DNA of 61,328 nt, from the NCBI GenBank assembly GCA_041737595.1, contig JBGSRK010000013.1, forward strand, positions 1-61,328. The letters run 5' to 3'. This DNA is from Patescibacteria group bacterium. GTDB lineage: Bacteria > Patescibacteriota > CPR2 > UBA1875. This document shows, in pieces, positions 3,642-60,000 of the stretch. A program made the position numbers and the translations under genes. A model generated the notes under the pieces. It did not search any database, had not been told where the DNA came from, and saw nothing but the letters and a program-made list of their open reading frames with translations. The stretch's first letter is position 1, and the number at the start of each line of letters is the position of its first letter.

Positions 3642-3669
3642 TAGATTCTTCGACTTCGCTCAGAATGAC
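3642..3669. repeat. REP unit (reverse orientation: GTCATTCTGAGCGAAGTCGAAGAATCTA)
   Basis: Same family as 2812-2963. Confidence 0.75.
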
Positions 3670-6581: not shown

Positions 6582-6737
6582 TTCCCCTCCTTCCAATATG
6601 ATTTTCGGTGGTCAAAGTGCACAAAAACGACAGAAGATAACCTAAATCTTTCAGATTTGGTGCCCTCCTGTCGTTGTAATTGTCAATTACCAAGTTATAT
6701 TTATTTATAGTTATTGTAAATAGTTTTTTAATGAAGA

Positions 6738-6759
6738 GTGCCGCCCCGAAGGGCGGCAC
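6738..6759 (-). terminator. Stem-loop after the dcd-like gene
   Basis: GTGCCGCC-ccgaag-GGCGGCAC, 22 nt downstream of the stop, followed by only a weak U-run. Confidence 0.55.
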
Positions 6760-6780
6760 ATCAACGTCATACTTGGGAGG

Positions 6781-30360: not shown

Positions 30361-30972
30361 TCAGGCGTAATGCCCCTTCCTTGCAATCACTTCGTCTGAG
30401 AGACAATCAAGAGTCAGAGAAAGATACTTGTGACTTTCTGCGACTTTTTTCTTACTTTTCTCTGACCCCCACATCAAGTTTCGCAAATGGAAGAGAAGTC
30501 TTGCCGGAGGTGTACCAGTAAGTTCCACGAGAGTCTGGGCGCTCACCTGTCTTGTTGAGCACTCAGTGACATTTACAAGCATGACTTCACTTCTTGTTCC
30601 ACCTCGCGGGTGCTGATCATCTTTCCTGCACAGTGTCATCTCGAGAACACACCAATTTCCTGTGTCATCAAGATAACCCGCTACATGTTGTCTGGTTTCT
30701 CCGATTCTCATAGTCTCGATCATGAAGTTGGTCTGTACCTCCATGCCATTGAGCTTTGTCAGTTTGTTTTCTGAAAGCTCAGTAGGAGACCAAGAGAATT
30801 TGATGTCGCTGGGGAGAACCTTAAGTTTTCCCAAGCTTATCTCCCGTACGTTGCTCGCAACGAGCATTCGCGCTGCTTCTACGTGGGTAAATATCTCTTC
30901 TCGAGACATTGTACCCTTCTTGGCCCATGCGCGTTCTTGCTTCTTCTTGCGAATATCACTTATCCAACTCAT
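30361..30972 (-). CDS. GC-rich orphan protein (203 aa), no recognisable family
   Basis: Long ORF in a visibly GC-rich island. A GGAAGG SD lies 9 nt before ATG 30972 (the track start 30981 is too close to the SD). The unit has its own promoter and terminator. Confidence 0.6.
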   Translation of the reverse strand: MSWISDIRKKKQERAWAKKGTMSREEIFTHVEAARMLVASNVREISLGKLKVLPSDIKFSWSPTELSENKLTKLNGMEVQTNFMIETMRIGETRQHVAGYLDDTGNWCVLEMTLCRKDDQHPRGGTRSEVMLVNVTECSTRQVSAQTLVELTGTPPARLLFHLRNLMWGSEKSKKKVAESHKYLSLTLDCLSDEVIARKGHYA

Positions 30973-31037
30973 TGCTACCATCCTTCCAAGGTCCGTGGCA
31001 TTGGGGGCATACCCACCGCAGCCAACAATAGGTGGTT

Positions 31038-37485: not shown

Positions 37486-37514
37486 TTGACAATAACTACA
37501 TTTTGTGATAACAT
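37486..37514 (+). promoter_or_regulatory. Promoter of the 37521-38327 RNA
   Basis: TTGACA (37486-37491), 17-nt spacer, TGATAACAT (37506-37514). Confidence 0.6.
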
Positions 37515-37520
37515 ATCTGC

Positions 37521-38327
37521 CAAGGTGAGACTACACCGGCAGGTAACCGTAAAGGGTCTTTAAACTCAGTGGCTTCGAGCCACAACGTGACCCACCTCGT
37601 TTGAGTAGTCATGTACCTTCCTCAGGAAACTGAGGAAAAACTAAAAAGGTATGGGGCAATGCTGTCGACCCCGAAAAAAAAGAAAATAAATATAATATCG
37701 ACAGCGCAATAAAAAAAGAATAAGTGGCGATAGGCCACTAAAGTGTTCGCCTTCGGGCGGCAACCCTCCCCTTGAATGCGACATTAGGGTGTCGTGGGAG
37801 CGGAATCATAGTTCTAGAGTGCAGGTCACACTCTTGGACAAAACAGACGGTTGGACTGATTGTAGCATGGCAAGACCCGAGAAAAAGCTCATCCCGAAGC
37901 CCATTGCACGAAATGACCAGGGAGAGAGTCGAGCCCTAAATCGACTTTCTCCGCTAGAAACTCCACGGCACTAGCTGCCGTTCCCCTGGAAATTACCGAG
38001 GAGGATAGTGTAATGAACCCGGAAGTGAAGCAAGCCGAGCCAGGGCGGTGAGCTGTCACTTCCAAGCACCTTAGAATCGATACGAGCAGGGAGTAAACCC
38101 ACCAAAAATCCTCTTTGGTACACGCTTTTTCAAGGGTGTGCTACTTGAGAAGTTACGCTCGTTCGAGAATGTCCCGGCGACACATACGGCACAGCCGTCG
38201 CAGTCGCTATTGACCCTTGCGCCAAAGTGCGCACGTAAATCCCGGGTCAGCATTTCACCGCCGCAAGGTGTGTAGAATTGTGGGGCAAGGGTGGCCCGGC
38301 GGTTATTCCGTCGGGCCTCTTTTTTTT
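37521..38327 (+). ncRNA. Large GC-rich structured RNA of about 800 nt, class unassigned
   Basis: No credible ORF. It runs on the strand opposite to both neighbours and has a strong promoter and terminator. Many tetraloop-capped hairpins are visible: CCUCAG-GAAA-CUGAGG, CGCC-UUCG-GGCG, GUGGC-uucga-GCCAC, GUGGC-gaua-GGCCAC, GGAAGUGA...UCACUUCC, CACC-gccgcaa-GGUG. An AT-rich loop is closed by UGCUGUCGA/UCGACAGCG. Confidence 0.6.
38293..38327 (+). terminator. Intrinsic terminator of the large RNA
   Basis: GGCCCGGCGG-uuauu-CCGUCGGGCC, then CU followed by U8. Confidence 0.8.
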
Positions 38328-38348
38328 AAAAAAAATAATTCAAATATT

Positions 38349-39083
38349 TTAAAAATTTTCTCTAATATTTACTTCTGTGACATATTTTTTCATAGTATCT
38401 GCAATTTCTTCTAAATCTTCTTTCTTAAATTTATCAGTCCCAAGTAAAGTTTTATCAAAAGTAACTTCATCTCGAAACCCTTGGATTGTGTATCTTTGGG
38501 CACCTTTTATTAATTCCCCCATTTCCATAAAATCAGAAATTTCATGAAAGGCAGGTAAAACTGTTGTTCGAAATTCGTGAGGTAACCCAGATTTTATAAT
38601 AATATCGATACTCTCTTTAATTTTTCCAACATCATCAAATCGTGATATCTGAGAATATTTCTTTAAAGGACCTTTTATATCCATCGCCACAAAATCTATC
38701 ATTTCAGAATCAATTAATCTTTTAAGTACAACTGGGTTTCCCCCATTAGTATCAAGTTTTACAGAAAAACCATGATCTTTTATTCTTGCAATAAAATTTT
38801 CCAAATCAATTTGGATAGTCGGCTCACCACCAGTAATAACAACTCCATCTAATTTTCCCTTTCGACTCTCAAGAAATTCAAAGAATTCAATTTCTGAGAG
38901 GTTTCCTTTATCAGGGTCGGACCCTGCAAACACAGGGTCCGACCCTGTGGCAGAGTAAGAAGGGATTAAATCTGGATTATGGCAAAAACCACATCTAAAA
39001 TTACAGCCCTGTGTAAAAACAACACAAGAAACTCGAGATGGATAATCTATAAGAGATGATTTAACAAGGCCACCTAATCGCAC
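38349..39083 (-). CDS. nrdG: Anaerobic ribonucleotide reductase activating protein (radical SAM) with an in-frame repeat-derived insertion
   Basis: SLIDYP......VFTQGCNFRCGFCHNP ... LDGVVITGGEPT. Likely GTG start at 39083 (GAGG 8 nt upstream). Confidence 0.85.
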   Translation of the reverse strand: MRLGGLVKSSLIDYPSRVSCVVFTQGCNFRCGFCHNPDLIPSYSATGSDPVFAGSDPDKGNLSEIEFFEFLESRKGKLDGVVITGGEPTIQIDLENFIARIKDHGFSVKLDTNGGNPVVLKRLIDSEMIDFVAMDIKGPLKKYSQISRFDDVGKIKESIDIIIKSGLPHEFRTTVLPAFHEISDFMEMGELIKGAQRYTIQGFRDEVTFDKTLLGTDKFKKEDLEEIADTMKKYVTEVNIRENF

Positions 39084-39094
39084 AGCTATACCTC

Positions 39095-39162
39095 GTCATT
39101 CCGGACTTGATCCGGAATCTATATTAATAAAACAGTGGATCCTGAATCAAGTTCAGGATGAC
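39095..39162. repeat. Two REP units (GTCATTCCGGACTTGATCCGGAATCTA; GGATCCTGAATCAAGTTCAGGATGAC)
   Basis: Same family, located between nrdG and the small nrdD fragment. Confidence 0.8.
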
Positions 39163-42825: not shown

Positions 42826-43944
42826 TTATTCCATTCTTTTTCGAATAAAGGCTGGGATTTCTAAATCATCAAATGCATCATCTTTTTTATCTTCGACGGG
42901 TGTTGTTGTTCCACCTCCAAAGAAATCATTATCATCTTCATCCGCATCAAGACCAGTTGTTACTGAATTTGAAGGAACAGATGTTTTTTCAATACCAGCA
43001 AAACCGGTTGCAATAACAGTAATTCTAATTTCGTTAGATATTTCAGGGTCAATTACAGAACCAAAAATGATATTTGCTTGAGGATCAGCTGCTTGAGTAA
43101 TTACCTTAGCTGCTTCATCGATTTCAAACATTCCAAGATCTGCACCCCCTGTAACATTAAATAGAACACCTTTAGCCCCATTTATTGATAGTTCAAGCAA
43201 TGGAGAGTTTATAGCTTGTTTTGCGGCGTCAACTGCTCTATTATCTCCTGAACCACGTCCAATTCCCATTAACGCACTACCTGCATTTGACATAATAGTT
43301 TTTACGTCAGCAAAGTCGACATTAATTAGACCGTTTACAGTGATTAAGTCAGAAATAGACTGGATACCTTGTCTTAGAACATCATCTACAATACCAAACG
43401 CTTCTAAAAGTGATGTTTTTCGATCAATTATCTGCAACAGGCGATCATTTGGAATAGTAATAAGTGTGTCAACCTTATCATGTAAAAGATCAATTCCTTC
43501 TTCAGAAACTCTTTTACGTCTTTCACCCTCAAAAGAGAAAGGCTTTGTAATAACTCCAACTGTTAGAGCACCTATTTCTTTAGCTAAAGAAGCTACAACA
43601 GAAGAAGCTTTTGTCCCTGTTCCACCACCCATACCACAAGTGACAAAGACCATATCTGCGCCTTTAAGCACTTCTTTAATAAGTTCAGCATCTTCCTCAG
43701 CAGCTTTAAGACCAACTTCAGGATCAGCACCAGCACCAAGGCCACGAGTTAAGTTTTTACCTATATGAACCTTTTTTCGAGCCTTTGAATGATGTAATGA
43801 TTGCGCATCTGTGTTAATTGCAACAAATTCTACACCACGAACACCCGCGTCAATCATACGATTAACTGCGTTTACACCGGAACCACCAATACCCACCACT
43901 TTAATGCGGGCAAATGTTTCCATTTCTGGTTTGATTTCTGCCAT
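42826..43944 (-). CDS. ftsZ: Cell division protein FtsZ
   Basis: [36 protein letters not shown]. Start moved to ATG 43944 (GGAG SD). Confidence 0.95.
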
Positions 43945-44193
43945 TTGATCTCCTAAATCCTGTACTACTATATAGTACAAACCCCTGAGTTAAAGTTTGT
44001 TTATACTAGACTTAGTGTATTGAATTTGTACTCATTTGTAAACCCTTTTTATCTTTGAACAATTCTATTGTACAAGATATGAATAAATTTCTTAAAAACT
44101 ACAGAGTTATCCACAATCAATCTTAGAGCTTTATTTATTTTATAGATAAAATATTAATAAATGTGTCAAATACAGAGTACTAAAGTTATACAA

Positions 44194-45435
44194 TTATGGT
44201 AAAAATATTTTAAATATCTTTTTTAGAAAAGAGATTATATTATTAAAAATATTATCTCCTACGGGACCTCGTCTACCACTATTATTAGATTCTTCAAAGT
44301 TATAGAGTACAAGACCAGTTGCAACACTCATTATAGGGTCATAAACTTTATCAGTAATACCAAACAAATTATGAGGTTTCCCTATCTCGACAGGTAATTT
44401 AAGTACTTGTTTAGCCTTTTCTTCTAGGCCAGGTAAATTTGTTGTCCCCCCAGTTAAGATAACCCCAGCAGGGAGTAAAGATTCGTGTCCAATTTTTTTA
44501 AATTCTTCTCGAACCATTTTAAGGATTTCTTCAATTCTTGCTTCAATAATTTCCGAAATGTGACGCCTTGAAACAATTCCTTCTTCTTTTATATCTATTG
44601 CCGAAAGATCTACTTTATCTTTTTCTGAAACATCTTTATGGAATGAGTGACCAAACCGAACTTTTACTTTCTCTGCAATATCTATAGAGGTTCTAAGCCC
44701 AATTGCAACATCATTTGTTATATGGAGACCTCCGATAGGTAAAACAGTCGTATAAAGCAGTTCACCGTCTTCATAAACACATATTCCAGTTGTTGCAGAA
44801 CCAATATCAACTACTGCACAACCCAAATCTATCTGTCTTTTTTTAGCGATTGCTTTTGATGCAGCTATAGGAGTAGCGATCATATCCTGAACCTTAACAC
44901 CAGCCTGTGAAAGACATTTATCAAGATTTCTAACTGCCTGAGAAGAAACTGCAACAATATGTGTTTCTACTTCAAGACGTATTCCTGTCATCCCAACTGG
45001 GTCTTTAATCCCTTCTTGGTCATCGACTTTATAGGTTCTTGGGAAAACGTGTAATATCTCCTTGTTTGGTGATATTTGGACCGCTTGGGCAGCATCCTGA
45101 GCTCTTGCGGCATCTTCTGATGTAATTTGTTGGTCAGCTCGTCCAACGCCAACAATACCATTTGAATTTATAGAAGAAATCCCAGCGCCATTAATATTTA
45201 CTGAAGCGCTATCAATTTCAACTCCAGCCATTCTTTCGGCGATTTCGATAGATTCAGATATCCCAGAAACGGTTTCTTCTATTTCTGTGACCACCCCTTT
45301 TTTAAGGCCAGTCATCGAAGATTTTCCAACTCCAATAATAGAAAGGTGTTCATCCCCCTCTCTTTTTGCAATTACAGTGGATATTTTTGATGATCCAATA
45401 TCAATACCGACAAAGATTTCTTCTTTTTGAGTCAT
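44194..45435 (-). CDS. ftsA: Cell division protein FtsA
   Basis: GIDIGSSKI..VIA... and VVDIGSATT actin-fold phosphate motifs. Located upstream of ftsZ. Confidence 0.9.
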   Translation of the reverse strand: MTQKEEIFVGIDIGSSKISTVIAKREGDEHLSIIGVGKSSMTGLKKGVVTEIEETVSGISESIEIAERMAGVEIDSASVNINGAGISSINSNGIVGVGRADQQITSEDAARAQDAAQAVQISPNKEILHVFPRTYKVDDQEGIKDPVGMTGIRLEVETHIVAVSSQAVRNLDKCLSQAGVKVQDMIATPIAASKAIAKKRQIDLGCAVVDIGSATTGICVYEDGELLYTTVLPIGGLHITNDVAIGLRTSIDIAEKVKVRFGHSFHKDVSEKDKVDLSAIDIKEEGIVSRRHISEIIEARIEEILKMVREEFKKIGHESLLPAGVILTGGTTNLPGLEEKAKQVLKLPVEIGKPHNLFGITDKVYDPIMSVATGLVLYNFEESNNSGRRGPVGDNIFNNIISFLKKIFKIFLP

Positions 45436-45513: not shown

Positions 45514-45594
45514 GTCATTCTGAGCGGAGCGAAGAATCTAATAATAGATCCTTCATATTCATTCAGGATGACAGCCCGATAGATTCAATATGAC
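45514..45594. repeat. REP units (GTCATTCTGAGCGGAGCGAAGAATCTA; GATCCTTCATATTCATTCAGGATGAC; AGATTCAATATGAC)
   Basis: Same family, at the left border of the GC-rich array. Confidence 0.75.
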
Positions 45595-45675
45595 AAATAT
45601 AAATGAAAATGGCGGACTAAAGTTCGGGTTTCCCCGTTCCTTAGCCCGCCGTGTCTAACAGATCGTGTTGTTGGT

Positions 45676-46422
45676 CTACTTGTCGCCGGCCACAGTCGTG
45701 TACTCCTTCGGCTTCTGCGGAAGCTTGTGCAAGCTCCAGCCTGCCTCCTTCAGCAGAACCTTGAAACTCTCGAGGTTACCATGGTAGATGGCATCCTTGA
45801 GAGCCACGATCCAAGGATAGAGCTTGTGCTGAGAGGCGATAACCATCACCTCTGCACCTTGAACCTTGAAGTAATCCTCAAGGGAGAAAGGATAGCCATC
45901 GCGGCAAACATCGGTAATGGCCTGAAGGGCCATTGCCTTGTCGGACCCCGCCATGACAACTTGGGCAGCGACGCCGTACTCGACCTCGAGAAGCCTCTCC
46001 AAGCCCATGTAGCCGTCCTCATCGTTGATCATCCCGAGAACTTTCGTAACGATCGCACTTCGAGATGTCAACTGAGAGAGAATGACTTGCTCGATGCCCC
46101 TCAAGCTGGCAACCTTCGATGTAGCCTCGAACAACTCTTCGATACTATCCGGAGGGGTGTCCACAAGCTTCTTGACCTCCTCGACCATCTCGACGAAACA
46201 GCCGCAAACATCTTCGCAGTCACTCTGTTCATGACTTGCGATGTACATCTCGAGCTCTTTGATCGTCTCTCGATTGAGCTCAAGTGAAACACCTGCCTCC
46301 TTCGCCAACTCGGCGAGGGTGACAACCGTTTCAAGGCGGTTGTTAGTCGTGTTCACTCTCTTCAAGAGTGATGAGGTAACTCCTGCTCTTGCCATTTCTC
46401 TCCAATCATCGTATTTGTACAC
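45676..46422 (-). CDS. GC-rich orphan protein, array module I (248 aa; start GTG 46422 or ATG 46395)
   Basis: Long ORF in a GC-rich block with no recognisable motif. A 3' hairpin lies at 45611-45650. Confidence 0.6.
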   Translation of the reverse strand: MYKYDDWREMARAGVTSSLLKRVNTTNNRLETVVTLAELAKEAGVSLELNRETIKELEMYIASHEQSDCEDVCGCFVEMVEEVKKLVDTPPDSIEELFEATSKVASLRGIEQVILSQLTSRSAIVTKVLGMINDEDGYMGLERLLEVEYGVAAQVVMAGSDKAMALQAITDVCRDGYPFSLEDYFKVQGAEVMVIASQHKLYPWIVALKDAIYHGNLESFKVLLKEAGWSLHKLPQKPKEYTTVAGDK

Positions 46423-46480
46423 TTCACACAGAAGTATTCTCCCCTCCCAGGTTTCTTCTGTGTTTTTTGATCTGTTTTTA

Positions 46481-46608
46481 CAAGTTGCACTGCAGTAACT
46501 AATCTGCAGATTTTATCTATTGTCATTCTGAACTTGATTCAGAATCTAGTATAAATATTATCTGAAGATTAGGTAAAGCTGGTGCCACTCTGTGAACAGA
46601 GCGACACC
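46481..46608 (-). repeat. Inter-module structured repeat, copy 1
   Basis: CAAGTTGCACTGCAGTAA-CTAATCTGCAGAT (46499-46511) ... REP unit ... ATCTGAAGATTAG (46560-46572), then a GC hairpin. Confidence 0.8.
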
Positions 46609-46633
46609 ATAGTGCGATTCAACAAGAACACCT

Positions 46634-46915
46634 TCAGTTAGCATCTTGCGAGTACACCGAGTTAAGCCTTGCAACGACTTCTTTGACTGAGCCGTCGACA
46701 CGTACCTTCAGTTCTGGACCCTTTGGAATGGGGATGCCCTTGAGAATGAGATAGCTACTCTCGTTTGGCATGTCGAGCCCATTGTAGTAAAAGGTTCCTG
46801 CATCAATCACTTGCCCCACTTCTTCGGGATCAACACTGTAATCCTCAGTTCTGCTGAAAATGTTGTCTTGCCCATCCTCTTCTACAACTACTCTCTCAAG
46901 CAGTACCTTCTTCAT
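46634..46915 (-). CDS. GC-rich orphan protein, module II second gene (93 aa)
   Basis: The start lies 8 nt after the stop of 46924-47307, with a GAGG SD in the gap. A 3' hairpin lies at 46581-46608. Confidence 0.6.
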   Translation of the reverse strand: MKKVLLERVVVEEDGQDNIFSRTEDYSVDPEEVGQVIDAGTFYYNGLDMPNESSYLILKGIPIPKGPELKVRVDGSVKEVVARLNSVYSQDAN

Positions 46916-46923
46916 GATATACC

Positions 46924-47307
46924 TCAGTTATCTTCGTTTATAGGGGATCTTGCCACTCGCATCAACACATAGTTCTCAACAGTTGCACTCGCAGCCTTAA
47001 GAGAAACTATGAATGGTTCTTCCGAACCACCCATAATATCATAAACCGCGAGTTTGTAGTAACGAGAGAAAAGCTCCTCGTACGATTCGTCCCATGCCGA
47101 AATCTCATCCATACCATCCTGACATTTCTGTTTCGCTCTCATTAAGAGAGTTTGCAGAAAATCTGTCTCAAAGATGATCTGTTTTACGAGTTCCCGACGA
47201 GATAGTTCGTAATCTATGATTAGCCCTCCAGTTATCACTATAAAAAGAGTGACTAATACGAGAAAGAAAATCCCCAGTATTACAAATGCCGATATTATGG
47301 CGTCCAT
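46924..47307 (-). CDS. GC-rich orphan membrane-anchored protein, module II first gene (127 aa)
   Basis: Start moved to ATG 47307 (GGGAG 8 nt upstream). N-terminal TM helix AIISAFVILGIFFLVLVTLFIVITGGLII. Confidence 0.6.
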   Translation of the reverse strand: MDAIISAFVILGIFFLVLVTLFIVITGGLIIDYELSRRELVKQIIFETDFLQTLLMRAKQKCQDGMDEISAWDESYEELFSRYYKLAVYDIMGGSEEPFIVSLKAASATVENYVLMRVARSPINEDN

Positions 47308-47350
47308 ACTAATCACTCCCGTCTGGGTATCGATGTATGTCGACTTATTC

Positions 47351-47491
47351 AAGTTGCACTGCAGTAATTAACCTGCAGATAGTTCATTTTGTTTATAGAT
47401 TCTGAATCAAGTTCAGAATGACAAAAGGATTTTATCTGAAGATTAGTGATTGTGGTGGGTGAGGTTCGGATTGCTCCGTTCCCCACCCACC
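47351..47491 (-). repeat. Inter-module structured repeat, copy 2
   Basis: AAGTTGCACTGCAGTAAT-TAACCTGCAGAT (47368-47380) ... inverted REP unit ... ATCTGAAGATTAG (47434-47446), then a GC hairpin nearly identical to that of copy 4. Confidence 0.8.
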
Positions 47492-47514
47492 GTACTCAAC
47501 TGATCGTCTTGTGG

Positions 47515-47883
47515 TTAGCCTGTATAAGGCATAACCTTAGTTGAGTTGTGATTCGGCGAGCGCATGAGCTCACCGTTCGACTCCCGGATCTTCCCCAAGA
47601 GAAATTTCTGATCCCTGACCCGCTTAAGGAGCGAGTCAGGGGGCAGTGAATCATCCTTCGCGGCGTCCACAAGTTCGTGGATAACCTCGAAGAAGACCCT
47701 TGGGGATTTCTTCTTCACCACGACGATCTCGTGGCGTCGTTCTATCTCATTGATCACGGGCCCAGAAAAGGCACCCGAATAACCTGCCTCCTCAAGCATG
47801 TGACAGGACGTGAAAATCAGTGTCCTTGTGTCCAAACGGTTGAACCCTAGAAGCCCAAGCTCGCGTGCACTTTCATCGTTCAT
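47515..47883 (-). CDS. GC-rich orphan protein, module III (122 aa)
   Basis: GGGAGGG SD 4 nt before ATG 47883. A 3' hairpin lies at 47452-47490. Confidence 0.6.
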   Translation of the reverse strand: MNDESARELGLLGFNRLDTRTLIFTSCHMLEEAGYSGAFSGPVINEIERRHEIVVVKKKSPRVFFEVIHELVDAAKDDSLPPDSLLKRVRDQKFLLGKIRESNGELMRSPNHNSTKVMPYTG

Positions 47884-47929
47884 AATGCCCTCCCTGAGTT
47901 GATCCCTTCCGGGACATTTTCTGAGTAAA

Positions 47930-48049
47930 GCTACTTGCAGCTTAGAATTAGCTCAAAGGCTATTAGTCTAATCTGCAAATCTTTGTACAATTTTATTGTT
48001 CAATTTGATTTGAAGATTAGGTGATGTGCGCGGAACGAGGTCCGCGCAC
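47930..48049 (-). repeat. Inter-module structured repeat, copy 3 (divergent, no REP core)
   Basis: CTAATCTGCAAAT (47968-47980) ... ATTTGAAGATTAG (48008-48020), then a GC hairpin. Confidence 0.7.
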
Positions 48050-48069
48050 GTTTTCACCCGAGAGATGGT

Positions 48070-48546
48070 TCAGTCGAACATGTGGCAAGCTGAGCACGAC
48101 TTAGGGTTTGGGTTCCTGCAGTCGGTGCAGTCTGCCGCATATCGCGGCTCTAGACCAGGGGCCATTGAGTAGGCCTCGTCGTAATCGTACTCGTCCGGAT
48201 AAGAATCTCCGAACATTACGTCGGGATCACGGCTCATCTGCTGCCAAACAAGGTCCATAATCTCGATACTTGCTCGCTCTTCGAGCTTGCGCTCTGCATA
48301 GCTAATCGCGCAGTTCCGGACCCTGTGAATGATCTCCGTCTGCAACTCCATGGAGGTGCAGTTGTAGTCATCAAGCGAGTCCCAATATGCACTATCTTCG
48401 CCGTCTCTTTCCAGAAGACTTTTATACGTCCTCATGGAACGATCATAGGCGCCTTTGTGAATTAGTTCTTTAACCTCTGGCATTGCCAGAAGATCAGCCT
48501 GAGTCATACCAGGCTCTACCATGATGCCACAAGGCAGACGCAGCAT
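48070..48546 (-). CDS. GC-rich orphan protein, module IV second gene (158 aa), C-terminal CxxC-x7-CxxC
   Basis: The ATG lies 1 nt after the stop of 48548-48730 (TGAaATG). It ends ...CTDCRNPNPKSCSACHMFD. A 3' hairpin lies at 48026-48049. Confidence 0.6.
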   Translation of the reverse strand: MLRLPCGIMVEPGMTQADLLAMPEVKELIHKGAYDRSMRTYKSLLERDGEDSAYWDSLDDYNCTSMELQTEIIHRVRNCAISYAERKLEERASIEIMDLVWQQMSRDPDVMFGDSYPDEYDYDEAYSMAPGLEPRYAADCTDCRNPNPKSCSACHMFD

Positions 48547-48547
48547 T

Positions 48548-48730
48548 TCAGTTCACCTTCCTGTCGAGGTAGATTCCCAGTAGAACTGCGCCCGTTAGAA
48601 CATCGTGCACCCTGTCTGACATCTGTATAAATATCAGAGCTACGATGATAGAGATGATGAATATGTTATAGACAGCTTCGACTGCGGCTGTTAAAGCCGC
48701 AGCCCTTCTTTCTGACATTCTTGAGCTCAT
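48548..48730 (-). CDS. GC-rich small membrane protein, module IV first gene (60 aa)
   Basis: Start moved to ATG 48730 (GGGGGG SD). Hydrophobic core VYNIFIISIIVALIFI. Confidence 0.5.
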   Translation of the reverse strand: MSSRMSERRAAALTAAVEAVYNIFIISIIVALIFIQMSDRVHDVLTGAVLLGIYLDRKVN

Positions 48731-48760
48731 TTTCCCCCCCATTTTTCTCGGGTGTATATT

Positions 48761-48921
48761 CAAGTTACACTGCAGTAACTAACCTGCAGATTTTATTCAT
48801 TGTCATTCTGAATTTGGCTGGCCCGAGGCGGACTCGCCCAGGGATTCAGAATCTATAAATATTATCTGAAGATTAGTGATTGTGGTGGGTGAGGTTTGGA
48901 TTGCTCCTTCCCCCACCCACC
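48761..48921 (-). repeat. Inter-module structured repeat, copy 4
   Basis: CAAGTTACACTGCAGTAA-CTAACCTGCAGAT (48779-48791) ... REP unit with a nested GC insertion ... ATCTGAAGATTAG (48864-48876), then a GC hairpin. Confidence 0.8.
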
Positions 48922-48948
48922 AAATTCGAAACCCAAAACGCATTGAGG

Positions 48949-49305
48949 TTACTTCTTGCGCCGAAACTCAGCTATCTTGGGCACACCATTTTTATCCGTG
49001 AAGACAAAAACGGTGTCACCGACCTCTATTCCAAGGTCAGTTGGGGGAAGAGCCACCGGCACTTCCTCAAATTCTGCCACGACGACTTCTTCGTAAATGG
49101 CAGTGACGGTACCTCCTTGGTGATAGCCAGACCAGAGTAGAGGCGTAAGGAAGAATGCGATAAGAGCTACAACCACAGCAGCTGTTATCAGAAACCCCTT
49201 TGCAGTTCCTTTCGAATACGTCATTAGTGCCATCAGCGCCACAATGATAAGGGCAATGATAGCCAAGACAAGCGGTCCCGTTAGCCAAGCTTCCCAGATA
49301 ATCAT
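48949..49305 (-). CDS. GC-rich orphan 2-TM protein, module V (118 aa)
   Basis: Start moved to ATG 49305 (AAGGGAGG SD). TM helices PLVLAIIALIIVALMALM and FLITAAVVVALIAFFLTPLL. A 3' hairpin lies at 48885-48920. Confidence 0.6.
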   Translation of the reverse strand: MIIWEAWLTGPLVLAIIALIIVALMALMTYSKGTAKGFLITAAVVVALIAFFLTPLLWSGYHQGGTVTAIYEEVVVAEFEEVPVALPPTDLGIEVGDTVFVFTDKNGVPKIAEFRRKK

Positions 49306-49383
49306 TATTCCTCCCTTGAACGTATTGGATATTGATCGCGTTGGTTTCGAATTCAAGTTACTTGTCCACAAAGTGAACTAAGT

Positions 49384-49412
49384 AATTTAACATATATTTA
49401 TATAAAAGTCAA
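49384..49412 (-). promoter_or_regulatory. Promoter upstream of the GC-rich array
   Basis: Minus strand TTGACT (49412-49407), 17-nt spacer ending TGT, TAAATT (49389-49384). It starts 3 nt after the map stop. Confidence 0.55.
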
Positions 49413-49414
49413 TA

Positions 49415-50173
49415 CTATTTGAGTTCTGTCAAAATTTCATAACCGTCATCGGTTACAAGCACAGTATGTTCATAATGGGAAGCTAATGAGTTATCATCTG
49501 TAAAATATGTCCACTTATCTTCTGAAAGAGCAACATCAATACAGCCACTCATAGTAAGCATTGGTTCTATTGCGATAGTCATTCCTGTTTTTAATATTGG
49601 ACCAGTCCCTTTTTCACCATAATTTGGAACATGTGGGTCTTCATGAACTTCTTTGCCAATACCGTGTCCAACTAACATTCTTATAACTCCATAACCTTCT
49701 TTTTCTGCAGTTTCTTGTATTTTAGCTGAGATATCGCCTAATCTAACCCCATCCTTAATAAGAGACGCTCCGGCATAAAATGATCTTTCGGTTGTTCTTA
49801 TAAGCTTATTTTGTTCCTTGGCCCCTTCACTCCCACATACAAAACTGAGAGCAGAATCAGTATGGAAGTCTGCATATAAAACACCCATATCAAGTGAAAC
49901 TAAATCACCTACCTGGATCACTTCATCGGTTGGTATACCGTGAACAACTTCAGTGTTCAAAGAAACACAAAGAGCCGCAGGATACCCTCCATAATTAAAA
50001 AAAGATGGCTTCACATGATATTTGAGACAAAGCCTTTTTGCAAGTTCGTCTAACTCTTTTCTTTTGACTCCAGGAACACATTTATTTTTTAATTCTATAA
50101 GAATACGTGCAAGTATTTGACCACCTTGGCGCATTGCTTCTTGTTCTTGTTTAGATTTAATATTTATAGTCAT
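49415..50173 (-). CDS. map: Methionine aminopeptidase type I
   Basis: 252 aa. ...VVHGIP......GD.VSLD......D....F..G......L......AL ... GHGIG...HE.P.V. Confidence 0.9.
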   Translation of the reverse strand: MTINIKSKQEQEAMRQGGQILARILIELKNKCVPGVKRKELDELAKRLCLKYHVKPSFFNYGGYPAALCVSLNTEVVHGIPTDEVIQVGDLVSLDMGVLYADFHTDSALSFVCGSEGAKEQNKLIRTTERSFYAGASLIKDGVRLGDISAKIQETAEKEGYGVIRMLVGHGIGKEVHEDPHVPNYGEKGTGPILKTGMTIAIEPMLTMSGCIDVALSEDKWTYFTDDNSLASHYEHTVLVTDDGYEILTELK

Positions 50174-50235: not shown

Positions 50236-50886
50236 TTAGAGAACCTTTCGTATTTCTTCCCTTATTTCTTCTGGGCTTGGGGTACCGTCAACCCGAGAAA
50301 GTACACTCATTTCTTCATAAAAATCAACAATTGGTTCATTATTTTCTTTAAAGATTTTAAATCTTCTTTTAACTGACTTGGGTTTGTCATCTTCACGTAC
50401 TGTTAATTTGCCACCACAATTTGGGCATGTTTTGTTTTTATTACTAGTGAATGAACCACATGCTTCACAAACGCGCCTTTTACTTATTCTACTAATTGCA
50501 TCTTTTTCTGAAAGCTCTATGTATATTACTTTATCAAGCATTCGGTTGTTTTCTTTAAGAATATCAATAAGTTTTTTCGCTTGTTCTAAACTTCTTGGAT
50601 ATCCGTCAATAATAACAGGTTGACCGTCTGGGAGTAAAACAAATGCTGAAATAAGCTCATCTTCTACGATTGAATCAGGTATAAGCTCACCTTTTTTCAA
50701 TTTTTCATGGATTTCTTCATTATGACCCGCAACTATTCGCATCAGTTCACCAGTTGAAATTATTTGATATCCAAGTGTTTCTGATAAAAATTCCGCTTGA
50801 GTATCTTTCCCAGAACCAGGAGCTCCAAGAATAATTATTGTTTCTGGTGCTGTTCTTTCTTCTATTGTAATTTCATTTTCGCTCAT
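50236..50886 (-). CDS. adk: Adenylate kinase with zinc-finger lid
   Basis: ILGAPGSGKDTQA P-loop; lid CEACGSF....NKTCPNCGG. Confidence 0.9.
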   Translation of the reverse strand: MSENEITIEERTAPETIIILGAPGSGKDTQAEFLSETLGYQIISTGELMRIVAGHNEEIHEKLKKGELIPDSIVEDELISAFVLLPDGQPVIIDGYPRSLEQAKKLIDILKENNRMLDKVIYIELSEKDAISRISKRRVCEACGSFTSNKNKTCPNCGGKLTVREDDKPKSVKRRFKIFKENNEPIVDFYEEMSVLSRVDGTPSPEEIREEIRKVL

Positions 50887-54041: not shown

Positions 54042-57000
54042 TTATTGGGTTTTTTTGCCTAAATTACTAAAGAATGAACCAACATTACGTGTCCAACTAA
54101 ATGTTTCTTCTAGACTTTTTAATATTAATTGAAGAATAGATTTTTCCTTGGAAGGTGTAACAAAAGTATAATCACTAGATTTTGTTTGATTTAATCTCTT
54201 ATCCTTTGAAACAATTCTAAAATGGTAGGTAGAAGCAGGGTTTAGGTCTTTAATAATAACTGTATGGGAGTTATTAAGCGATTCGTCTTCAATAGAAGCT
54301 TTGCCATATTTACCGCCGATTACACCCTCGTCATATTCAATTTTTGTTGTGGCTGGCTTATTTGTTGACCAAGAAATTATAGCTTGTGCATATTCATCAG
54401 ACTCACCTAGTGGGAGAATATCTATCTTAACTTTATCTATTTCTGGGCCTGTTTTATCTATTGGAGTCTCAAAAGAAAGATTTGACGACTTTGAAGAATT
54501 ACCTATCTTATCTTTTACTTCAACATAATATGCATATGTTGTGCCGTCTGTTAGATTTTTTAACTCTATTTGATGTATTTTAGAATATTGAGCAACCCCC
54601 GCCTTTTGATCAAATTTACCCTTTTCACCATAAGATACCGACGATTCGGTTTCAACATTTGTGGTAAATGTAACTACAGCCAGATATGGATCTTCTAAAT
54701 TAATTTTAAGATTTTGGATTTCAGGTTTAAGAACGGCAGTGAATTTATATTCTTTTGATGTATATTCTACATCATTAATATCAAGACCTCGAACTTTATA
54801 AAAATAAGTCGTCCCAGGAGTTAAATTTTTAAGCTCAACAACATGAACTGTATTATATTCATTACTACCTGCAGACTGCCCATATTCTTCAGATTTAGTT
54901 CCGAAATCGACCCAAGTAGTTGTTGCAATCAAAGTGTTCCAAACAATTTTTGCACTAGTTGCGGTAATATTTTCTTCTGCAATATTTGAGGCATCTGGCT
55001 GAATTACAAATTGAGAAGAATCAAATGGCTTTGTACTAAATGTCGCAAATTGGGTATTAGCAATATATTTATCTTCAGTCACAGAACGTATTTTATATGT
55101 ATAAGTAGTCGCCGGTTTAAGAGATTTTATTACAACCTCATGTGATCTGAGTAAAGCTGGATCGCCTGCTGTTTGTGAATCTTCGGACGACGATTCTCTT
55201 TTATATTCAACCGATGAATCAGCATTAATATTTGTTGTCCATTTAACTTTAGCAGTTGTTGTAGTTGGTTCTACTGTTATTCCTGAAATTGAGAAATCTT
55301 GGGTTTTAAATTCTTTCCAAGTGTTAGCTGCAGTTGTATCAATATTCCCTAGAGAATTTCTAGAAACAATTCTATATTCATAAGTTTTGCCCTTTTCTAA
55401 TCCAAGTAAATTTATTGTATGTGATGTAACTGGGGTAGTTCTATCTTTACCAGCGGCAATTACTATATTTGTATCTTTAATTCTATATTCAACAAGTGAA
55501 TCTGCCTGTTGATCTGTGGACCAGGTTATTGTAGCAGAAGAAACACCTACCCCAGTGTAATTAATATTAGAAACAATCGGTATAGCTGACCCAGGGTTAA
55601 TCGAAACCGGTGATTGATAAGTACTTCTATTGGAAATATTATTAATAACTGTTTCATCTGCATATTTATAATCTGTACCAGCATCATCAACGGAGATAAC
55701 ATAATATGAGTATTCTTTATCCTTTTCAGCAATAGAAATACCGTCAACATGATAGTTATCACCAATATCTGTTTTTTCTGTAATTTTCGTGGCACTTGCA
55801 ATACCTAAGGTTGATTCAAAGCGCCAAACTTCATATTTTGAAAAATCACTTTGACTGTTTCTTTGAGGATCTGATATCATCTGCCAAGTAACAATATTTC
55901 GGACCATTGAGTCGTTAGCATGGATATTTTTAACAGTTACCTCTTGAGGTTGATCTGGCGCGGTTATATCTGGGACAGTATCCCAACCGCTATTATGAGT
56001 TCCGAGGCCAATAGACGAAAGACCAGACTTAACTATCTGCTCATTTTCAGGTGTACCTGGGTCATTTTCAATCGAAACATTTAAACCATATGCAATAATT
56101 TTATAATAATAAGTTGTTGCATCGTCTTCAACTGTATCAGTATAACTTCTTTCAATATCCTGGATCTCTCCCGCAATAGAAAGATTATTTATTTCATGTA
56201 TTGGGGTAAGAGCTTCCCACTCGCCATCATTTTCATAGTTAATTGTAGAACGATATATTTTATAATCAGTGATCGAATTTTCAATTACTTTTATTTTTGA
56301 TCCTAAAAATGTTATGTTAATTTTATTACCAACGTTTGAGTCAGTATTTGGGTCCCCTTTTACAGCTTGAACAGTTACGTTTGAAGGGGAGGTTGGAACC
56401 TGAGAATTTTTTGTTCTAACGCTCTTATAAGTACTTAAAACACTAGTTAAATCTGCATTATCAGTTGATGAAACTCGATAATAAAAATATGTATCTTCGG
56501 TTAGACCATTATCAGAATAACTCACTCCAGTACCAGTATAGATTAATTGTTCTCCGGCTCCTTGATCTGACGTCGCACGATAAAGCTTATAATTTTTTAT
56601 TCCCGAACCGTTTCCCGTTGGTATTCTATCTATTGTTCTTGTATCTGTTGAAGCAGACCAGGTTATATTTGTTCCTTGAGTTTCGCCTGTATTATCTACC
56701 CCAATTGCAGAAGCAGAGAGGCCAGTTGGAGTTGATGGAGGTGTTTTATCTGTAGTTTTGGCTGTCCCTGAGTTATATGCCATATTAAGCGGATACCCAG
56801 GTTCTGAAGCAATAACATCAGTCTCATTTAGATTATCATCTACAGCTGTTACACGATAAAAATAATCAACATAATCATTAAGTCTAGTTGTTGCTTGAGA
56901 TTTTATTGAACCGATTGTTACATCAGTGAATGTAGCGTCATTATTTGTATCATTATCATAATAGGTAGTAATTGGATTTTCTGGTGCAACAACTTGGTTT

Positions 57001-60000
57001 TTTGGTGGGTTAATGTCTATATAACCAACTATTACATAATCACTTGCTTCAGATGAGTAGGTCCCTGTTTTACGATAGATTTTATAGCCTGTTACCCCAG
57101 AACCAGCATCTGTTGTGGCATTCCAAGTAAGTTTTATTTCGTAACCCTTATTTGCAATATTTGAACATTTTTGTGATGTACCATCACATGCAACTGCCGT
57201 AACACCACCAAAAGCAACAGGATCAACCCCATCTACAGTTAATCCCCTTGTAACTGAAACTGGCCAGACTCCCCAATCTGCTGGATGGGCCAAGTCTTTT
57301 GCACGAATTCGATAATAATATGAAACAGATTGTTCAATCGCGCTACCAGTCGTGAGCGTACAACCAGCCGTAGACACACCAGTTATGGTTTCAGTGAGTG
57401 AAGTGTTTATGGCACAATCGACTAACGCATATGTTTGAGAGTTGCTCCAAGTACCTGTTGGGGTTAAGACATCTTGTTCATATATAGTTTTTTTAACTCT
57501 TTCTATTTGATGGTTAGAAATGGCAGATCCGGCAGCATTGTAACTCCAAGAAAGATTAATATTATTTGTATCATTTTGAGATACTGAGAATGTTTGAGGA
57601 GTAGTCGGAACAGCTGTATCAAGGATTATTGTGTCTAAAATAGTATTAAAATTTGGGTTTACTGTTCTAACACAAATTATTTTTTTAGACATTGTTTTTG
57701 TTCCAGATCCGCTTCCACTTGGATATGGATAAGGTATATATCTTGCTGAACTTTCACTTGATTCTGTAGCAATCCAAATATCTTCTGTAAAATCTAAATC
57801 GAAGGTCACATTATGATTCAAAATATAACTTAACTCACTATAATATGGTAGTCTACCGCCAACAAGTTGACATGCATTTTGAGCTGGATATGCAGAAAAA
57901 TCGACACTTGAACTTTCAACTAATGAGTAATTAGTTGGGTATTTTGCATCTAAACCAACCTCACACTGAGGACTCGTGCAAGAAGTTACTGTCGATTTCC
58001 ATTGATAATTTGTTGGAAGATATTGATGATAGACTTGTTTATCATCTAGAACTGTACCAGAGGGCCCATCAATATAATCATCTGCAAATAAATCTGGTTC
58101 TCCCGCTACATTCCCAGCCTCATCTTTTACTCGTATATAAATTTCTTTAGCACCATCAGAACCTTCTAAATACCAAGCATCTGTAATAGTTTGAACATTG
58201 ATTTCATGAGGATTAATTGTTTCATAATACGTCCAATCGGTTGATTTGTTATTTGTGGTTCCACTGCCAGAATAAGTCCCCCAATTTGTCCCATCTTGTG
58301 AAAATTGAACTTTTAAATCTTTATTATTACCATTGTCATAATAAACACCTTTTGTTGTAACTAAACGATTTGCTTCGGTTATATATTCTGTACTTCCACC
58401 TGAAGATTCAACATAAAATCCAGAAAGGGTCGGAGTACTTAAATCTAAAATAATAGAGTCAGAGACATTCACCGAATCAAACTGAATATCATAAAAAGTT
58501 GGTGTATTATTACCATCACCTGTTAGAGTGGCTTTGTATTGAAGGTATTGATGATTATCAAGCTCACTTGGAGCGTCTTCGCCAGAGGTAAGAGTATAGT
58601 AGCCTGTCCAGGTACCGTCTGGTATAGCGGTATTGCCAGCTCTGGCCTTGATAGAAATGGCAGTATTTGCAGGAGTAGTGTCGACATTGAAAATGACTAC
58701 ACCAAAATCAGTTACCTCTTGGCCAGAATCAAAGACTTCTGAATTAAGTAATCCTAAATAATTAAGGGTGTTTGTGGGGATATCCCTAACACAACGAACA
58801 TAATAATTGGTAGTTTTGTCGCTTAATCCTAAGCCTCCATTAGAAAAAGTAACAAAAATGGCCTGGCTGTCACTAGTTTGAGTAGCACTCCAAAAAAAGC
58901 CTGTACCAAAATTATTTCCATAAGAAGCACTATCCACATAAAGATCATGCAACTCATTGTAATATGGGAGTCTTCCACCCAACACACTACATGCATTCCG
59001 AGCAGGATAATCAGAATAATCCACAGCATTAGAGGCATTTAGGGCCATCTTTGCCGTAAAAGCAGGATCAATGCCTAGAGAACACTGTGGCTCACTACAG
59101 TTTGTACTATACAACCCCCAACCATACCTCTCTGAGAGATTTTGAGAGTACACCTGCTTGCCCTCTAGATAAGACTCGGCCAAACCATCGTAAATCCATC
59201 CTGAATTATTTACTGGTGATAAAGTAACATTGCCGTTTTCGGCGCTTAGACCTTGCAAAGTATCCCCCGCAAAGTCATCATCACTGGTCTGTAACCATGT
59301 TCCGCTCACATTCCCAGCATTATCCCGATATTGAGCATAAACTGTTTTTTCACCTTCTCCAGAAGTTAGGTTCCAGGATTTTGAGGCAGCATATGCCTCC
59401 CACTCCTCTGTATCGAAAACCCCATCATTACTAAACCTCATCTGCCCAAGATTAGACCCACCTATATCAACCGCTGAAGATGTATCAAGGGTTACATTTT
59501 GAGAATTAGCATAGGCACCACCGTTAATAACTACATTACCAGTCGGAACAGACTGGTCAATAGTGATATCTGCTGACGTTTCTTCATTAGCACCATAAGC
59601 TGTCCAGCCAGAAACCCTGCCCTGATCATCTATGGCTCTTACTTGGAGGTGATATTCTGAGCCATTCGTAAGGCTTGTGATATCAACATAATTATTTCCA
59701 GCCTCAGCGGTGTATATATTATCAGAAGAATCGAAGGCGGTACCAATTTCTTCAATCTCTACTTCTGGGCGAATATTTTCAGGTGTGACACAACCCGTAC
59801 AAGTTAGATTATTAGCCGTAACTCTTAGAGTTGATTCGTTAGACCAAGCATCTGGCACTCCGCCGCTGACAGTAGTTCCAGACGAGTTTTTTAGACTTGT
59901 GGCGTCTGTTTTTGTAAGCACGATATTGGCGTTTGTAGGAGCCTCGAGGGTGTCATAGGTAATAGTGAAATCATTAAGAATTGGGGTACTAATTCCGTCA

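Follow-up and report, generated by a model that had tools for sequence, protein, structure and literature searches.

A variable array of small GC-rich orphan genes with hairpin joints between map and ftsA in Saccharibacteria-like Patescibacteria

How do bacteria with tiny, streamlined genomes, such as the Patescibacteria (candidate phyla radiation, CPR), acquire and try out new genes, a process of which little is known? The question is raised by a stretch of 61,328 nt from a Patescibacteria group bacterium (GCA_041737595.1, contig JBGSRK010000013.1; hereafter the window), in which seven open reading frames (ORFs) forming five modules lie on the minus strand between map and ftsA (the array is displayed as 45,595-49,414). 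Our best explanation, to which we give an even chance, is that this array represents a lineage-specific hyperplastic accessory operon (an 'ORFanage') at the map-ftsA junction of one family-level group of Saccharibacteria-like Patescibacteria. A fixed slot beside the cell-division genes contains from zero to seven small orphans in this group, mostly membrane or acidic proteins, which turn over between close relatives while keeping a foreign codon signature. The array ORFs and their flanking genes are listed in the direction of reading, with GC3 denoting GC content at third codon positions.

adk: 50236-50886, same strand as the array.
map: 49415-50173, same strand as the array.
W7 (module 1): 48949-49305, minus strand, 118 aa; two transmembrane (TM) helices by hydropathy and a small C-terminal soluble domain; GC3 0.49.
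W6 (module 2, gene 1): 48548-48730, minus strand, 60 aa; one TM helix by hydropathy.
W5 (module 2, gene 2): 48070-48546, minus strand, 158 aa; acidic, with a TPR-like motif at residues 10-58 and a C-terminal zinc ribbon (AADCTDCRNPNPKSCSACH).
W4 (module 3): 47515-47883, minus strand, 122 aa; soluble, member of an 'AGYSGAxS...NGEL' family.
W3 (module 4, gene 1): 46924-47307, minus strand, 127 aa; N-terminal TM helix by hydropathy.
W2 (module 4, gene 2): 46634-46915, minus strand, 93 aa; acidic, soluble.
W1 (module 5): 45676-46395, minus strand, 239 aa; acidic, predicted all-helical; GC3 0.67.
ftsA: 44194-45435, same strand as the array.
ftsZ: 42826-43980, same strand as the array.

An earlier note, made from the letters of this DNA, had described seven ORFs on one strand, grouped into five modules between which a conserved structured element lies. 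The ORFs are present and all of its coordinates were confirmed, the modular layout with its separator is real, and the start of W1 was revised. A GTG start would give W1 248 aa (45676-46422); the ATG at 46395 is probably the correct start, because GGAGAG precedes it by 4 nt and the protein database holds the resulting 239-aa form, an exact look-up of the 248-aa form giving no record. The three membrane proteins claimed previously were recovered by hydropathy analysis, which confined TM-like segments to W7 (two), W6 (one) and W3 (one) and found the soluble array proteins to be acidic. Other details of the note were likewise read in the sequence, including the CTDC-x7-CSAC end of W5 (a CxxC-x7-CxxC tail), coupling gaps between stop and start of 8 nt for W3/W2 and 1 nt for W6/W5, and strong, purine-rich Shine-Dalgarno (SD) sequences upstream of all seven starts. 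The array proteins look like envelope-associated accessory factors.

Are these ORFs genes, and are they foreign? The GC content of the island is 0.44-0.49, against ~0.30-0.37 over most of the window, and the excess falls almost wholly on third codon positions: GC3 ranges from 0.41 to 0.67 in the seven ORFs compared to 0.18-0.22 in ftsZ, ftsA, map and adk. This contrast with the flanking genes bears out the foreign composition that had been proposed. GC1 (0.48-0.60), GC2 (0.31-0.41) and G1 (0.33-0.43) all lie in the range of ordinary genes, and each of the seven ORFs shows codon-position asymmetry. Judged by codon-level signatures, the array ORFs are real protein-coding genes of foreign composition.

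None of the seven proteins had an above-threshold match in Pfam, PHROGs, NCBIfam or PADLOC, and at these thresholds no toxin, antitoxin, immunity or defence homology and no homology to housekeeping families was found, in agreement with the earlier statement that the ORFs could not be placed in known families. A word-indexed search of 5.8 billion proteins returned W1 and W4 only themselves, and a full HMMER search of W5 against 1.84 billion representatives returned only W5 and one giant kinase/TPR protein. The latter (2554 aa) was rejected as a family link, as the match consists of a single generic TPR-like repeat (residues 10-58). The island DNA had no blastn match among phage or plasmid records, W1 and W4 had no tblastn match in the phage collection, and two scans of viral contigs with the patterns of the intermodular joints described below yielded no match. 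Single-sequence AlphaFold2 models of W1 and W5 were too poor for a fold search, with predicted local distance difference test (pLDDT) values of 48 and 45, respectively. For W1, W2, W3, W6 and W7, no relative was detectable in any search run.

To ask what occupies the same position elsewhere, relatives were gathered by FtsA search in genomes and by look-up of FtsA homologues in assemblies, resulting in 13 distinct arrangements (loci are numbered with the prefix L), all of which are independent assemblies of Patescibacteria or 'Saccharibacteria' metagenome-assembled genomes or contigs. The closest relative to the window has an FtsA identity of 84%. The order ybeY-adk-map-[X]-ftsA is kept in all arrangements that reach far enough upstream, with X constituted as follows.

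Empty, 67-70 nt: L066/67 and L070.
Empty, 194 nt: L004.
One ORF: L002, L055 and L071.
Two or three ORFs: L003, L057, L059, L060 and L064.
Four genes, comprising two orphan ORFs and a Phd-ParE toxin-antitoxin pair: L072.
At least four ORFs: L068, the contig of which begins within the array.
Seven ORFs: the window.

Also identified, through the DNA pattern of the joint hairpin, was the metagenome contig L001, which carries this hairpin upstream of ftsA after two unrelated GC-rich ORFs and encodes an FtsA 74% identical to that of the window. Most array genes are unrelated between genomes, and the few families that recur do so only in the map-ftsA slot; the structural reading of the earlier note, an accessory, modular and foreign-looking orphan array, is right, the content of the slot being variable among relatives. 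Its observation of repeated pairs of a membrane protein followed by a soluble protein stands in part. The layout recurs in the related arrays of L003 and L059, but no homologous pair does, the partners there having no detectable similarity to W6/W5 or W3/W2. The effector/immunity, phage-exclusion and host-interaction roles that the note had suggested for these pairs found no support in homology. A proposed homology among the membrane proteins W3, W6, W7, L002_140, L003_147 and L059_136 was also not significant. Across 12 arrays, cassette GC3 ranges from 0.41 to 0.80 against a host GC3 of 0.21-0.48, with only weak correlation between them (r = 0.42), and in each occupied slot the cassette ORFs exceed the GC3 of ftsA and map from the same genome.

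Between independent samples with identical FtsA, arrays are base-identical or one base apart. This excludes misassembly as a general explanation, and also indicates that module turnover is slower than strain divergence. A chimeric assembly incorporating GC-richer foreign DNA, or non-coding DNA with chance ORFs, might have been suspected from the sharp GC step at both edges of the island, and from this contig being the only record of these exact proteins. Such an artefact is nevertheless very improbable, given that the same architecture of promoter, GC3-rich ORFs, terminal hairpin and ftsA promoter is found in over ten independent assemblies, which come from different projects, that all seven ORFs share the codon-position asymmetry noted above, that W4 and W5 have same-slot homologues with coding-type substitutions, and that a repeat of the host lies inside three of the joints.

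Two of the related arrays have passengers of recognisable type. One cassette of L060 (9595-9849; also in L061-L063) encodes a HupF/HypC-like small protein with an MCLALP... start, from a hydrogenase-maturation chaperone family, an odd passenger for a Patescibacteria array. In L072, the Phd/YefM-ParE pair (1915-2990) is located between the array terminator and ftsA, and is AT-rich with a host-like GC3 of 0.35-0.36.

Is the array then a single foreign insertion? Based on all-against-all blastp and a Smith-Waterman shuffle test, we defined three families of array proteins: an 'AGYSG' family with the AGYSGAxS...NGEL motif (W4, L055_109 and L057_130), a family with the zinc-ribbon tail AADCxDCxxPxPxxCSxCH (W5, L057_52 and L059_54), and an 'HPH' family with the motif HPHEVLVNK, found in L057, L059 and L060 and not in the window. 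A fourth family (L002_140 and L071_137) was recognised by eye. The first three are limited to the clade with FtsA at least 76% identical to that of the window, and homologues of W4 and of the W5 tail were found solely in the same slot of close relatives. L064_163 and L001a were also considered as members of the W4 family (shuffle z = 5.1) and were rejected at an hhalign probability of at most 1%. Divergence within families is far above that of housekeeping genes; for example, W4 and L055_109 are 38% identical (E 7e-15), compared to 84% for FtsA of the same two genomes. Identities at codon positions 1/2/3 are 47/63/26% for this pair, 77/73/45% for the W5 zinc ribbon and 81/82/53% for the HPH pair, a coding-like pattern of substitution that answers for W4 and the W5 zinc ribbon a check that had been proposed earlier. 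Since diverged homologues of W4 and of the W5 zinc ribbon exist at the same locus, and the two are older residents of the slot in this clade, the word 'inserted' in the earlier note is only partly right: the content is foreign-looking, variable and accessory, but did not arrive in one recent insertion. The W4 and L055_109 genes also retain a GC3 of 0.63-0.70 in hosts of GC3 0.21-0.34 despite saturation of their third positions. Such persistence may reflect either long residence in a shared GC-richer pool or a compositional equilibrium of the locus itself, e.g. through GC-biased gene conversion at a recombination hotspot.

What, then, frames the array and is shared where the genes are not? Two features mark its ends in the window.

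Array promoter: 49384-49412, minus strand; TTGACT-17-TAAATT, TG-extended, directly after the map stop, 9/12 match.
Likely array terminator: 45611-45650, minus strand; terminal GC hairpin GGCGGGCTAAGGAACGGGGAAACCCGAACTTTAGTCCGCC with GAAA tip, followed by a T-rich tract.

The promoter (49412-49384) is the sole 9/12 match facing the array from upstream, as had been claimed for the only clear sigma70 promoter of the locus, although promoter-like matches across the region are no commoner than in shuffled sequence. Some 25 nt at this promoter are 96% identical to the same position in L055, and a TTGAC(T/A)...TATAAT-like promoter follows map in L002, L003, L055, L057, L064, L068 and L071. Occupied loci thus share a sigma70-type promoter after the map stop, a leader often containing GCAACTT or AACTTG, and a terminal hairpin. 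The terminal hairpins have a small GNRA-type tip and a T-run, with a conserved ftsA promoter (TTGTATACC...TATAAT) immediately after them; they include GGCGG...GAGGAAC-GAAA-GAACCTC...CCGCC and, in L059, GGAGCAATCC. Homologous hairpins with T-runs precede the ftsA promoter in L002, L003, L059, L071 and L072. The conserved frame is reflected in a blastn comparison of the window with L055, in which only the array and ftsA promoter regions were detected.

Within this frame, modules 1 to 4 are each closed by a composite joint. The four joints are listed from upstream to downstream, with scores from the covariance model R1 introduced below.

Joint A: 48757-48921, minus strand, 65.8 bits; GC hairpin 48884-48921 (GGTGGGTGGGG...CCTCACCCACC, GGA-GCAA-TCC tip, no T-run), imperfect hairpin 48779-48876 (98 nt) and conserved leader TTACTGCAGTGTAACTTGAATA.
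Joint D: 47968-48049, minus strand, 57.8 bits; GC hairpin 48026-48049 (GTGCGCGG...CCGCGCAC, no T-run) followed by an imperfect hairpin 47968-48020 (53 nt) that is the shortest and 'naked', with neither REP-like core nor conserved leader.
Joint B: 47346-47491, minus strand, 65.4 bits; GC hairpin 47454-47491, sharing 94% identity with its joint A counterpart, imperfect hairpin 47368-47446 (79 nt) with its core inverted relative to A and C, and conserved leader.
Joint C: 46478-46608, minus strand, 69.7 bits; GC hairpin 46581-46608 (GGTGTCGCTCTGT...ACAGAGTGGCACC), imperfect hairpin 46499-46572 (74 nt) and conserved leader.

Upon closer inspection, a common design was apparent, in which a GC hairpin of the GGTGGGTGGGG...CCCACC type starts every joint and is followed by the linker ACAATC(A), a long imperfect hairpin and, in A, B and C only, a leader of ~25 nt (TTACTGCAGTGYAACTTG) ending in AACTTG. 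In contrast to the terminal hairpins, none of the internal GC hairpins carries a T-run, and the tip of the GC hairpin in A and B (GGAGCAATCC) is that of the L059 terminal hairpin. The imperfect hairpin comprises a 7-bp stem I (CTAATCT/AGRTTAG), a T.C mismatch, a 5-6-bp stem II (CAGAT/ATCTG) and an interior (27-75 nt) that varies freely in sequence and length. The joint motifs occur in four copies between the modules and are absent from the rest of the window, and none of 100 shuffles reached the observed counts. Three more copies, one each in L001, L068 and L072 (the last retaining GGTTAGTTACTGCA), bring the total to seven. Every copy lies on the sense strand, directly after a T-less GC hairpin and inside a map-ftsA array, in four genomes altogether; each folds as one long hairpin (53-101 nt), with stem I and the T.C mismatch invariant.

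A covariance model, R1, built from the seven copies scored them at 54-70 bits and the next match at 18.6 bits in a search space of 413 kb (the window and 23 related loci), and a looser regular expression applied to 1.08 Mb revealed the same array-only distribution. As both scans match only array copies, the joint is a discrete, array-specific element rather than a dispersed repeat. RNAalifold predicted ten pairs across the seven copies, including one compensatory pair, which is A-U in three copies (D, L001 and L072) and G-C in the other four, together with U.G/U-A alternation; a second compensation, T-A to A-T in stem II of L068, was evident from the pairing table. Neither a gathering-threshold Rfam scan of the window nor an E-value scan of the island identified a joint family, the matches being an L10 leader elsewhere and a chance miRNA. 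The 13-nt arms of the joint behave like terminal inverted repeats, and no target-site duplication was found in the flanks.

Other candidate interpretations of the repeats were set aside. One promoter per joint was rejected, because only joint C has a 9/12 match and A, B and D have none. An origin related to diversity-generating retroelements or clustered regularly interspaced short palindromic repeats (CRISPR) was also rejected, in that no template/variable repeat pairs or spacer arrays were present and the repeats are all intergenic joints. Two ORFs of 45-46 aa on the minus strand (48803-48943 and 47349-47486) extend across joint A and joint B, respectively, with '...GAI(Q/R)TSPTTITNLQI...' in common; both lack an SD sequence and are probably not genes, their similarity mirroring the DNA repeat.

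Did the modules accumulate within this genome? In joints A, B and C, the interiors correspond to copies of a 25-nt host unit (GTCATTCTGAACTTGATTCAGAATC) resembling repetitive extragenic palindromic (REP) elements, inverted in B relative to A and C, while joints D, L001, L068 and L072 have other interiors. In the window, this unit (GTCATTCTGAGCGGAGCGAAGAATC and variants) is intergenic and often forms inverted pairs.

REP-like unit: 2185-2209, 2903-2963 (2903/2939), 3659-3669, 39152-39162 and 45514-45572 (45514/45562); the core variant of joints A-C also occurs at 39152.
REP-like inverted pair GTCATTCTGAGCGGAGCGAAGAATC / GTCATCCTGAATGAATATGAAGGATC: 45514-45572, strand not assigned, between the array terminator and the ftsA promoter.

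A GC-richer variant, GTCATCCCGAGCGCAGTCGAGGGATC, was also observed at the end of the L057 array. The joint repeats in the window are 88-94% identical although the modules between them are unrelated, and their homology has abrupt limits: the base of the GC hairpin is its exact starting point for A and B, and AACTTGAATA/AACTTGTAA its end for A, B and C. The repeated unit therefore has sharp borders. Because A, B and C share the host repeat in their cores, they descend from one joint that had already picked it up, and joint duplication, hence module addition, occurred inside this lineage. The host repeat inside these joints also indicates that the island has resided in this genome.

These features suggest a route by which the accessory operon might grow. 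Each module would have entered as a block made up of leader, ORF(s) and hairpin. By replacing the T-run, the joint would turn a would-be terminator into a read-through hairpin, such that appended modules could be co-transcribed from the single promoter. The long hairpin, with its 20-40 bp, matches RNase III or stability elements in size and shape and would probably serve as an RNA 3'-end stabiliser or processing site. In addition, the 88-94% identical joints may be the places where recombination adds, loses or swaps modules, the role proposed for the stem-loops and attC sites of the known systems considered below, and the cassettes may come from, or be kept like, a GC-richer gene pool shared among lineages.

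A simpler account would make the joints RNA punctuation of a polycistronic mRNA and nothing else, with the array changing through illegitimate recombination, duplication and fast vertical divergence, and the joints playing no part in gene flux. The single promoter, the restriction of T-runs to the terminal GC hairpins, the GNRA-type tips of the GC hairpins (GCAA, GAAA) and the folding of all seven elements into one 20-40-bp hairpin, the size of an RNase III substrate, all accord with it. So do the two compensatory changes and a U.G pair present in five of the seven copies, which reads as paired on the sense strand only, and, among the genes, the fact that shared families keep their relative order and have identities that roughly track the FtsA tree. 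Other observations fit less well. Ten plus ten stem nucleotides and the mismatch are exact across genera with only two covarying positions, which would be unusual for selection on structure only; the element is patchy on the FtsA tree, being absent from the closest relatives and present in three more distant lineages; and in L001 it comes after the final cassette, with no downstream cistron left to separate. The high GC3 that W4 and L055_109 maintain with third positions at 26% identity is also difficult to reconcile with a long stay under the mutation bias of the host. We consider this account doubtful, if a serious competitor.

Intercistronic hairpins have several precedents, among them the RNase III sites in the early operon of phage T7, the REP elements and bacterial interspersed mosaic elements (BIMEs) of Escherichia coli operons, and the Correia and enterobacterial repetitive intergenic consensus (ERIC) elements, which are miniature inverted-repeat transposable elements (MITEs). 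REP elements and MITEs are dispersed genome-wide. The joints resemble all of these in being repeated 20-40-bp hairpins between cistrons that could set differential stability or processing, and the cores of joints A-C are indeed copies of a REP-like host repeat that is itself dispersed. In contrast, the joint hairpin is confined to map-ftsA arrays, shows no target-site duplication, and has stems whose sequence is conserved across genera.

Might the joints instead be sites of integron-like, site-specific recombination? Here the hairpins would be non-canonical attC-type sites served by a tyrosine recombinase encoded elsewhere, and the array would correspond to a set of clustered attC sites that has no integron-integrase (CALIN), with a Pc-like promoter. 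As in integron cassette arrays and CALINs (Cury et al. 2016, PMC4889954), the cassettes are promoterless, of the same orientation, mostly orphan and placed behind one promoter, and CALINs with no intI nearby are common (PMC4889954). The site at the 3' end of the module is an imperfect palindrome of 53-101 nt (about 50-150 nt for attC) in which the outer boxes are conserved, one unpaired position never changes and the loop or terminal structure varies; stems are conserved across genera (FtsA ~74% identical) and loops are free. The outer boxes CCTAAT...RTTAG resemble RYYYAAC...GTTRRRY, and TTAG also follows the array promoter (ACTTAGTT). Toxin-antitoxin modules are a further point of likeness, and the one in L072 is set between two copies of a ~50-nt (52-53-nt) direct repeat that contains the ftsA promoter and is bounded exactly by CCTAAT and ATTAGG, the outer bases of the joint. 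This footprint, a single case, fits either a Campbell-type homologous insertion or a site-specific event.

The detail of the sites departs from attC in several respects. The attC boxes are R'' RYYYAAC and R' GTTRRRY, and none of the seven sites has both consensuses: the 5' box reads (C/A)CTAAT in all seven, with AAT in place of the conserved AAC, and none of the 3' boxes (GTTAGTT twice, GTTAATT, ATTAGTT, ATTAGAC, GTTAGAA and GTTAAGA) is a full GTTRRRY. The conserved duplex of 13-14 bp is arranged as 7 bp, a 1x1 mismatch and 5-6 bp rather than in the R-spacer-L geometry, and joint homology runs past the hairpin into the flanking GC hairpin and the ~25-nt leader. Four co-oriented sites close modules 1-4 in the window, but module 5, the last cassette, has no site, and most related arrays vary without one. 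No recombinase family, including Phage_integrase/IntI, was found in the Pfam scan of ~48 window ORFs or in the gene tables of the fetched related loci (L055-L072), although a CALIN would need none. The genome is also very small, a literature search found no description of integrons in Patescibacteria, and Rfam holds no attC family. Because no integrase was found, the R-box consensus is absent, the conserved flanks are long and most arrays are siteless, we have not filed the locus as an integron, and regard this explanation as unlikely.

A further parallel is offered by the promoter-early stem-loop (PeSL) cassettes that T4-type phages carry in their hyperplastic regions (Arbiol et al. 2010, PMC2839356; Comeau et al. 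2014, PMC4122927), for which the authors knew of no cellular example (PMC2839356). In both, small database-orphan ORFs cluster in a hyperplastic region between core genes, modules are bounded by a repeated composite motif with a G-run/C-run stem-loop so that recombination between copies can delete, insert or swap them, and no dedicated recombinase has been identified. The present array differs in its location on a cellular chromosome rather than in a phage, and in possessing an additional long AT-rich imperfect hairpin with sequence-conserved stems. Also, the PeSL motif contains a strong sigma70-like early promoter, whereas here one promoter lies upstream and only joint C has a 9/12 match. Finally, PeSL cassettes are recognised by circular excision products (mini-circles) and by indels between close relatives that end in the motifs, while the likeness drawn here is one of sequence architecture.

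Phage morons, integration hotspots and flexible genomic islands are comparable in that genes of foreign composition occupy one fixed interval between core genes and differ in content between relatives. Here, however, the modules share one promoter and a dedicated joint in an interval of 0-4 kb, and the cargo consists nearly entirely of small orphans rather than recognisable defence or metabolic genes. No tRNA or tmRNA gene that could act as an integration anchor is present in the window, nor was an integrase detected in its Pfam scan. Relative to all of these systems, the array is an unusual cassette or hyperplastic region, being found on a CPR chromosome, beside division genes and with its own array-specific hairpin joint.

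In its boldest form, the accessory-operon explanation would make the map-ftsA arrays an undescribed cassette platform of ultra-small Patescibacteria, a cellular counterpart of PeSL modules and integrons, in which envelope-protein genes from a shared GC-richer pool are captured behind one promoter at the hairpin joint (arms CTAATCTTCARAT / ATYTGCAGRTTAR) by an unrecognised recombinase or by host recombination. We consider this form doubtful. Several observations weigh against the accessory-operon explanation, among them some against an exchange role of the joints or an outside source of the genes. No recombination event has been caught, arrays being the same among strains with identical FtsA, and the closest relatives (L055, L057, L059 and L060) vary in content without the joint, which is consequently not the sole route of change. 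The last module, W1, has no joint after it. Wherever two of the shared families co-occur, the order zinc-ribbon < HPH < AGYSG is kept, which also fits vertical descent with insertions and deletions. Gene conversion biased toward GC at a recombination hotspot could give high GC3 without an outside pool, and folding strength on the sense versus the antisense strand is inconsistent across copies, leaving architecture as the basis of the RNA role.

If the joints are indeed exchange points, the locus would constitute the first cellular analogue of the 'mobile regulatory cassette' mechanism of PeSL, and an integrase-less parallel to integrons in a phylum without described integrons. Under a conservative reading, it still provides a small, naturally occurring setting in which the birth and flux of orphan genes can be studied, a set of episymbiont proteins that are candidates for envelope or host-interface roles, and a well-defined RNA/DNA element, whose model R1 can be used to search other genomes.

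A second presence/absence polymorphism of the division cluster was observed next to the array. A gene encoding an Rce1-like CPBP protease (~203-223 aa) is located between ftsA and ftsZ in L057, L059, L060, L064, L068 and L071, and is absent from this position in the window (43981-44193), L001, L055, L066, L070 and L072.

Elsewhere in the window, a second GC-rich island (4594-7920, minus strand; 46-52% GC against ~33%) comprises a 454-aa ThyX-domain protein, a thymidylate kinase and a two-domain dCTP deaminase. This nucleotide-metabolism block is of foreign composition and has weak-to-good PHROG matches. A locally GC-richer kilobase (0.43) contains a 206-aa ORF without a Pfam match (30361-30981, minus strand), between an HD-domain gene and that of ribosomal protein L21. 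Approximately 850 nt located 3' of a radical-SAM (NrdG-like) gene (~37500-38350; GC ~0.39) contain no convincing ORF and yielded nothing in Rfam at E<=0.1; in L057 and L064 this gene is likewise followed by a gap of comparable length, and the stretch could represent an undescribed RNA or a decayed gene. Finally, a giant ORF of 2393 aa (54042-61223, minus strand) with RCC1, FN3, Lcl-C and purple-acid-phosphatase-N type repeats probably encodes a surface protein, and relatives possess comparable giants with Kelch/RCC1 repeats at the same place.

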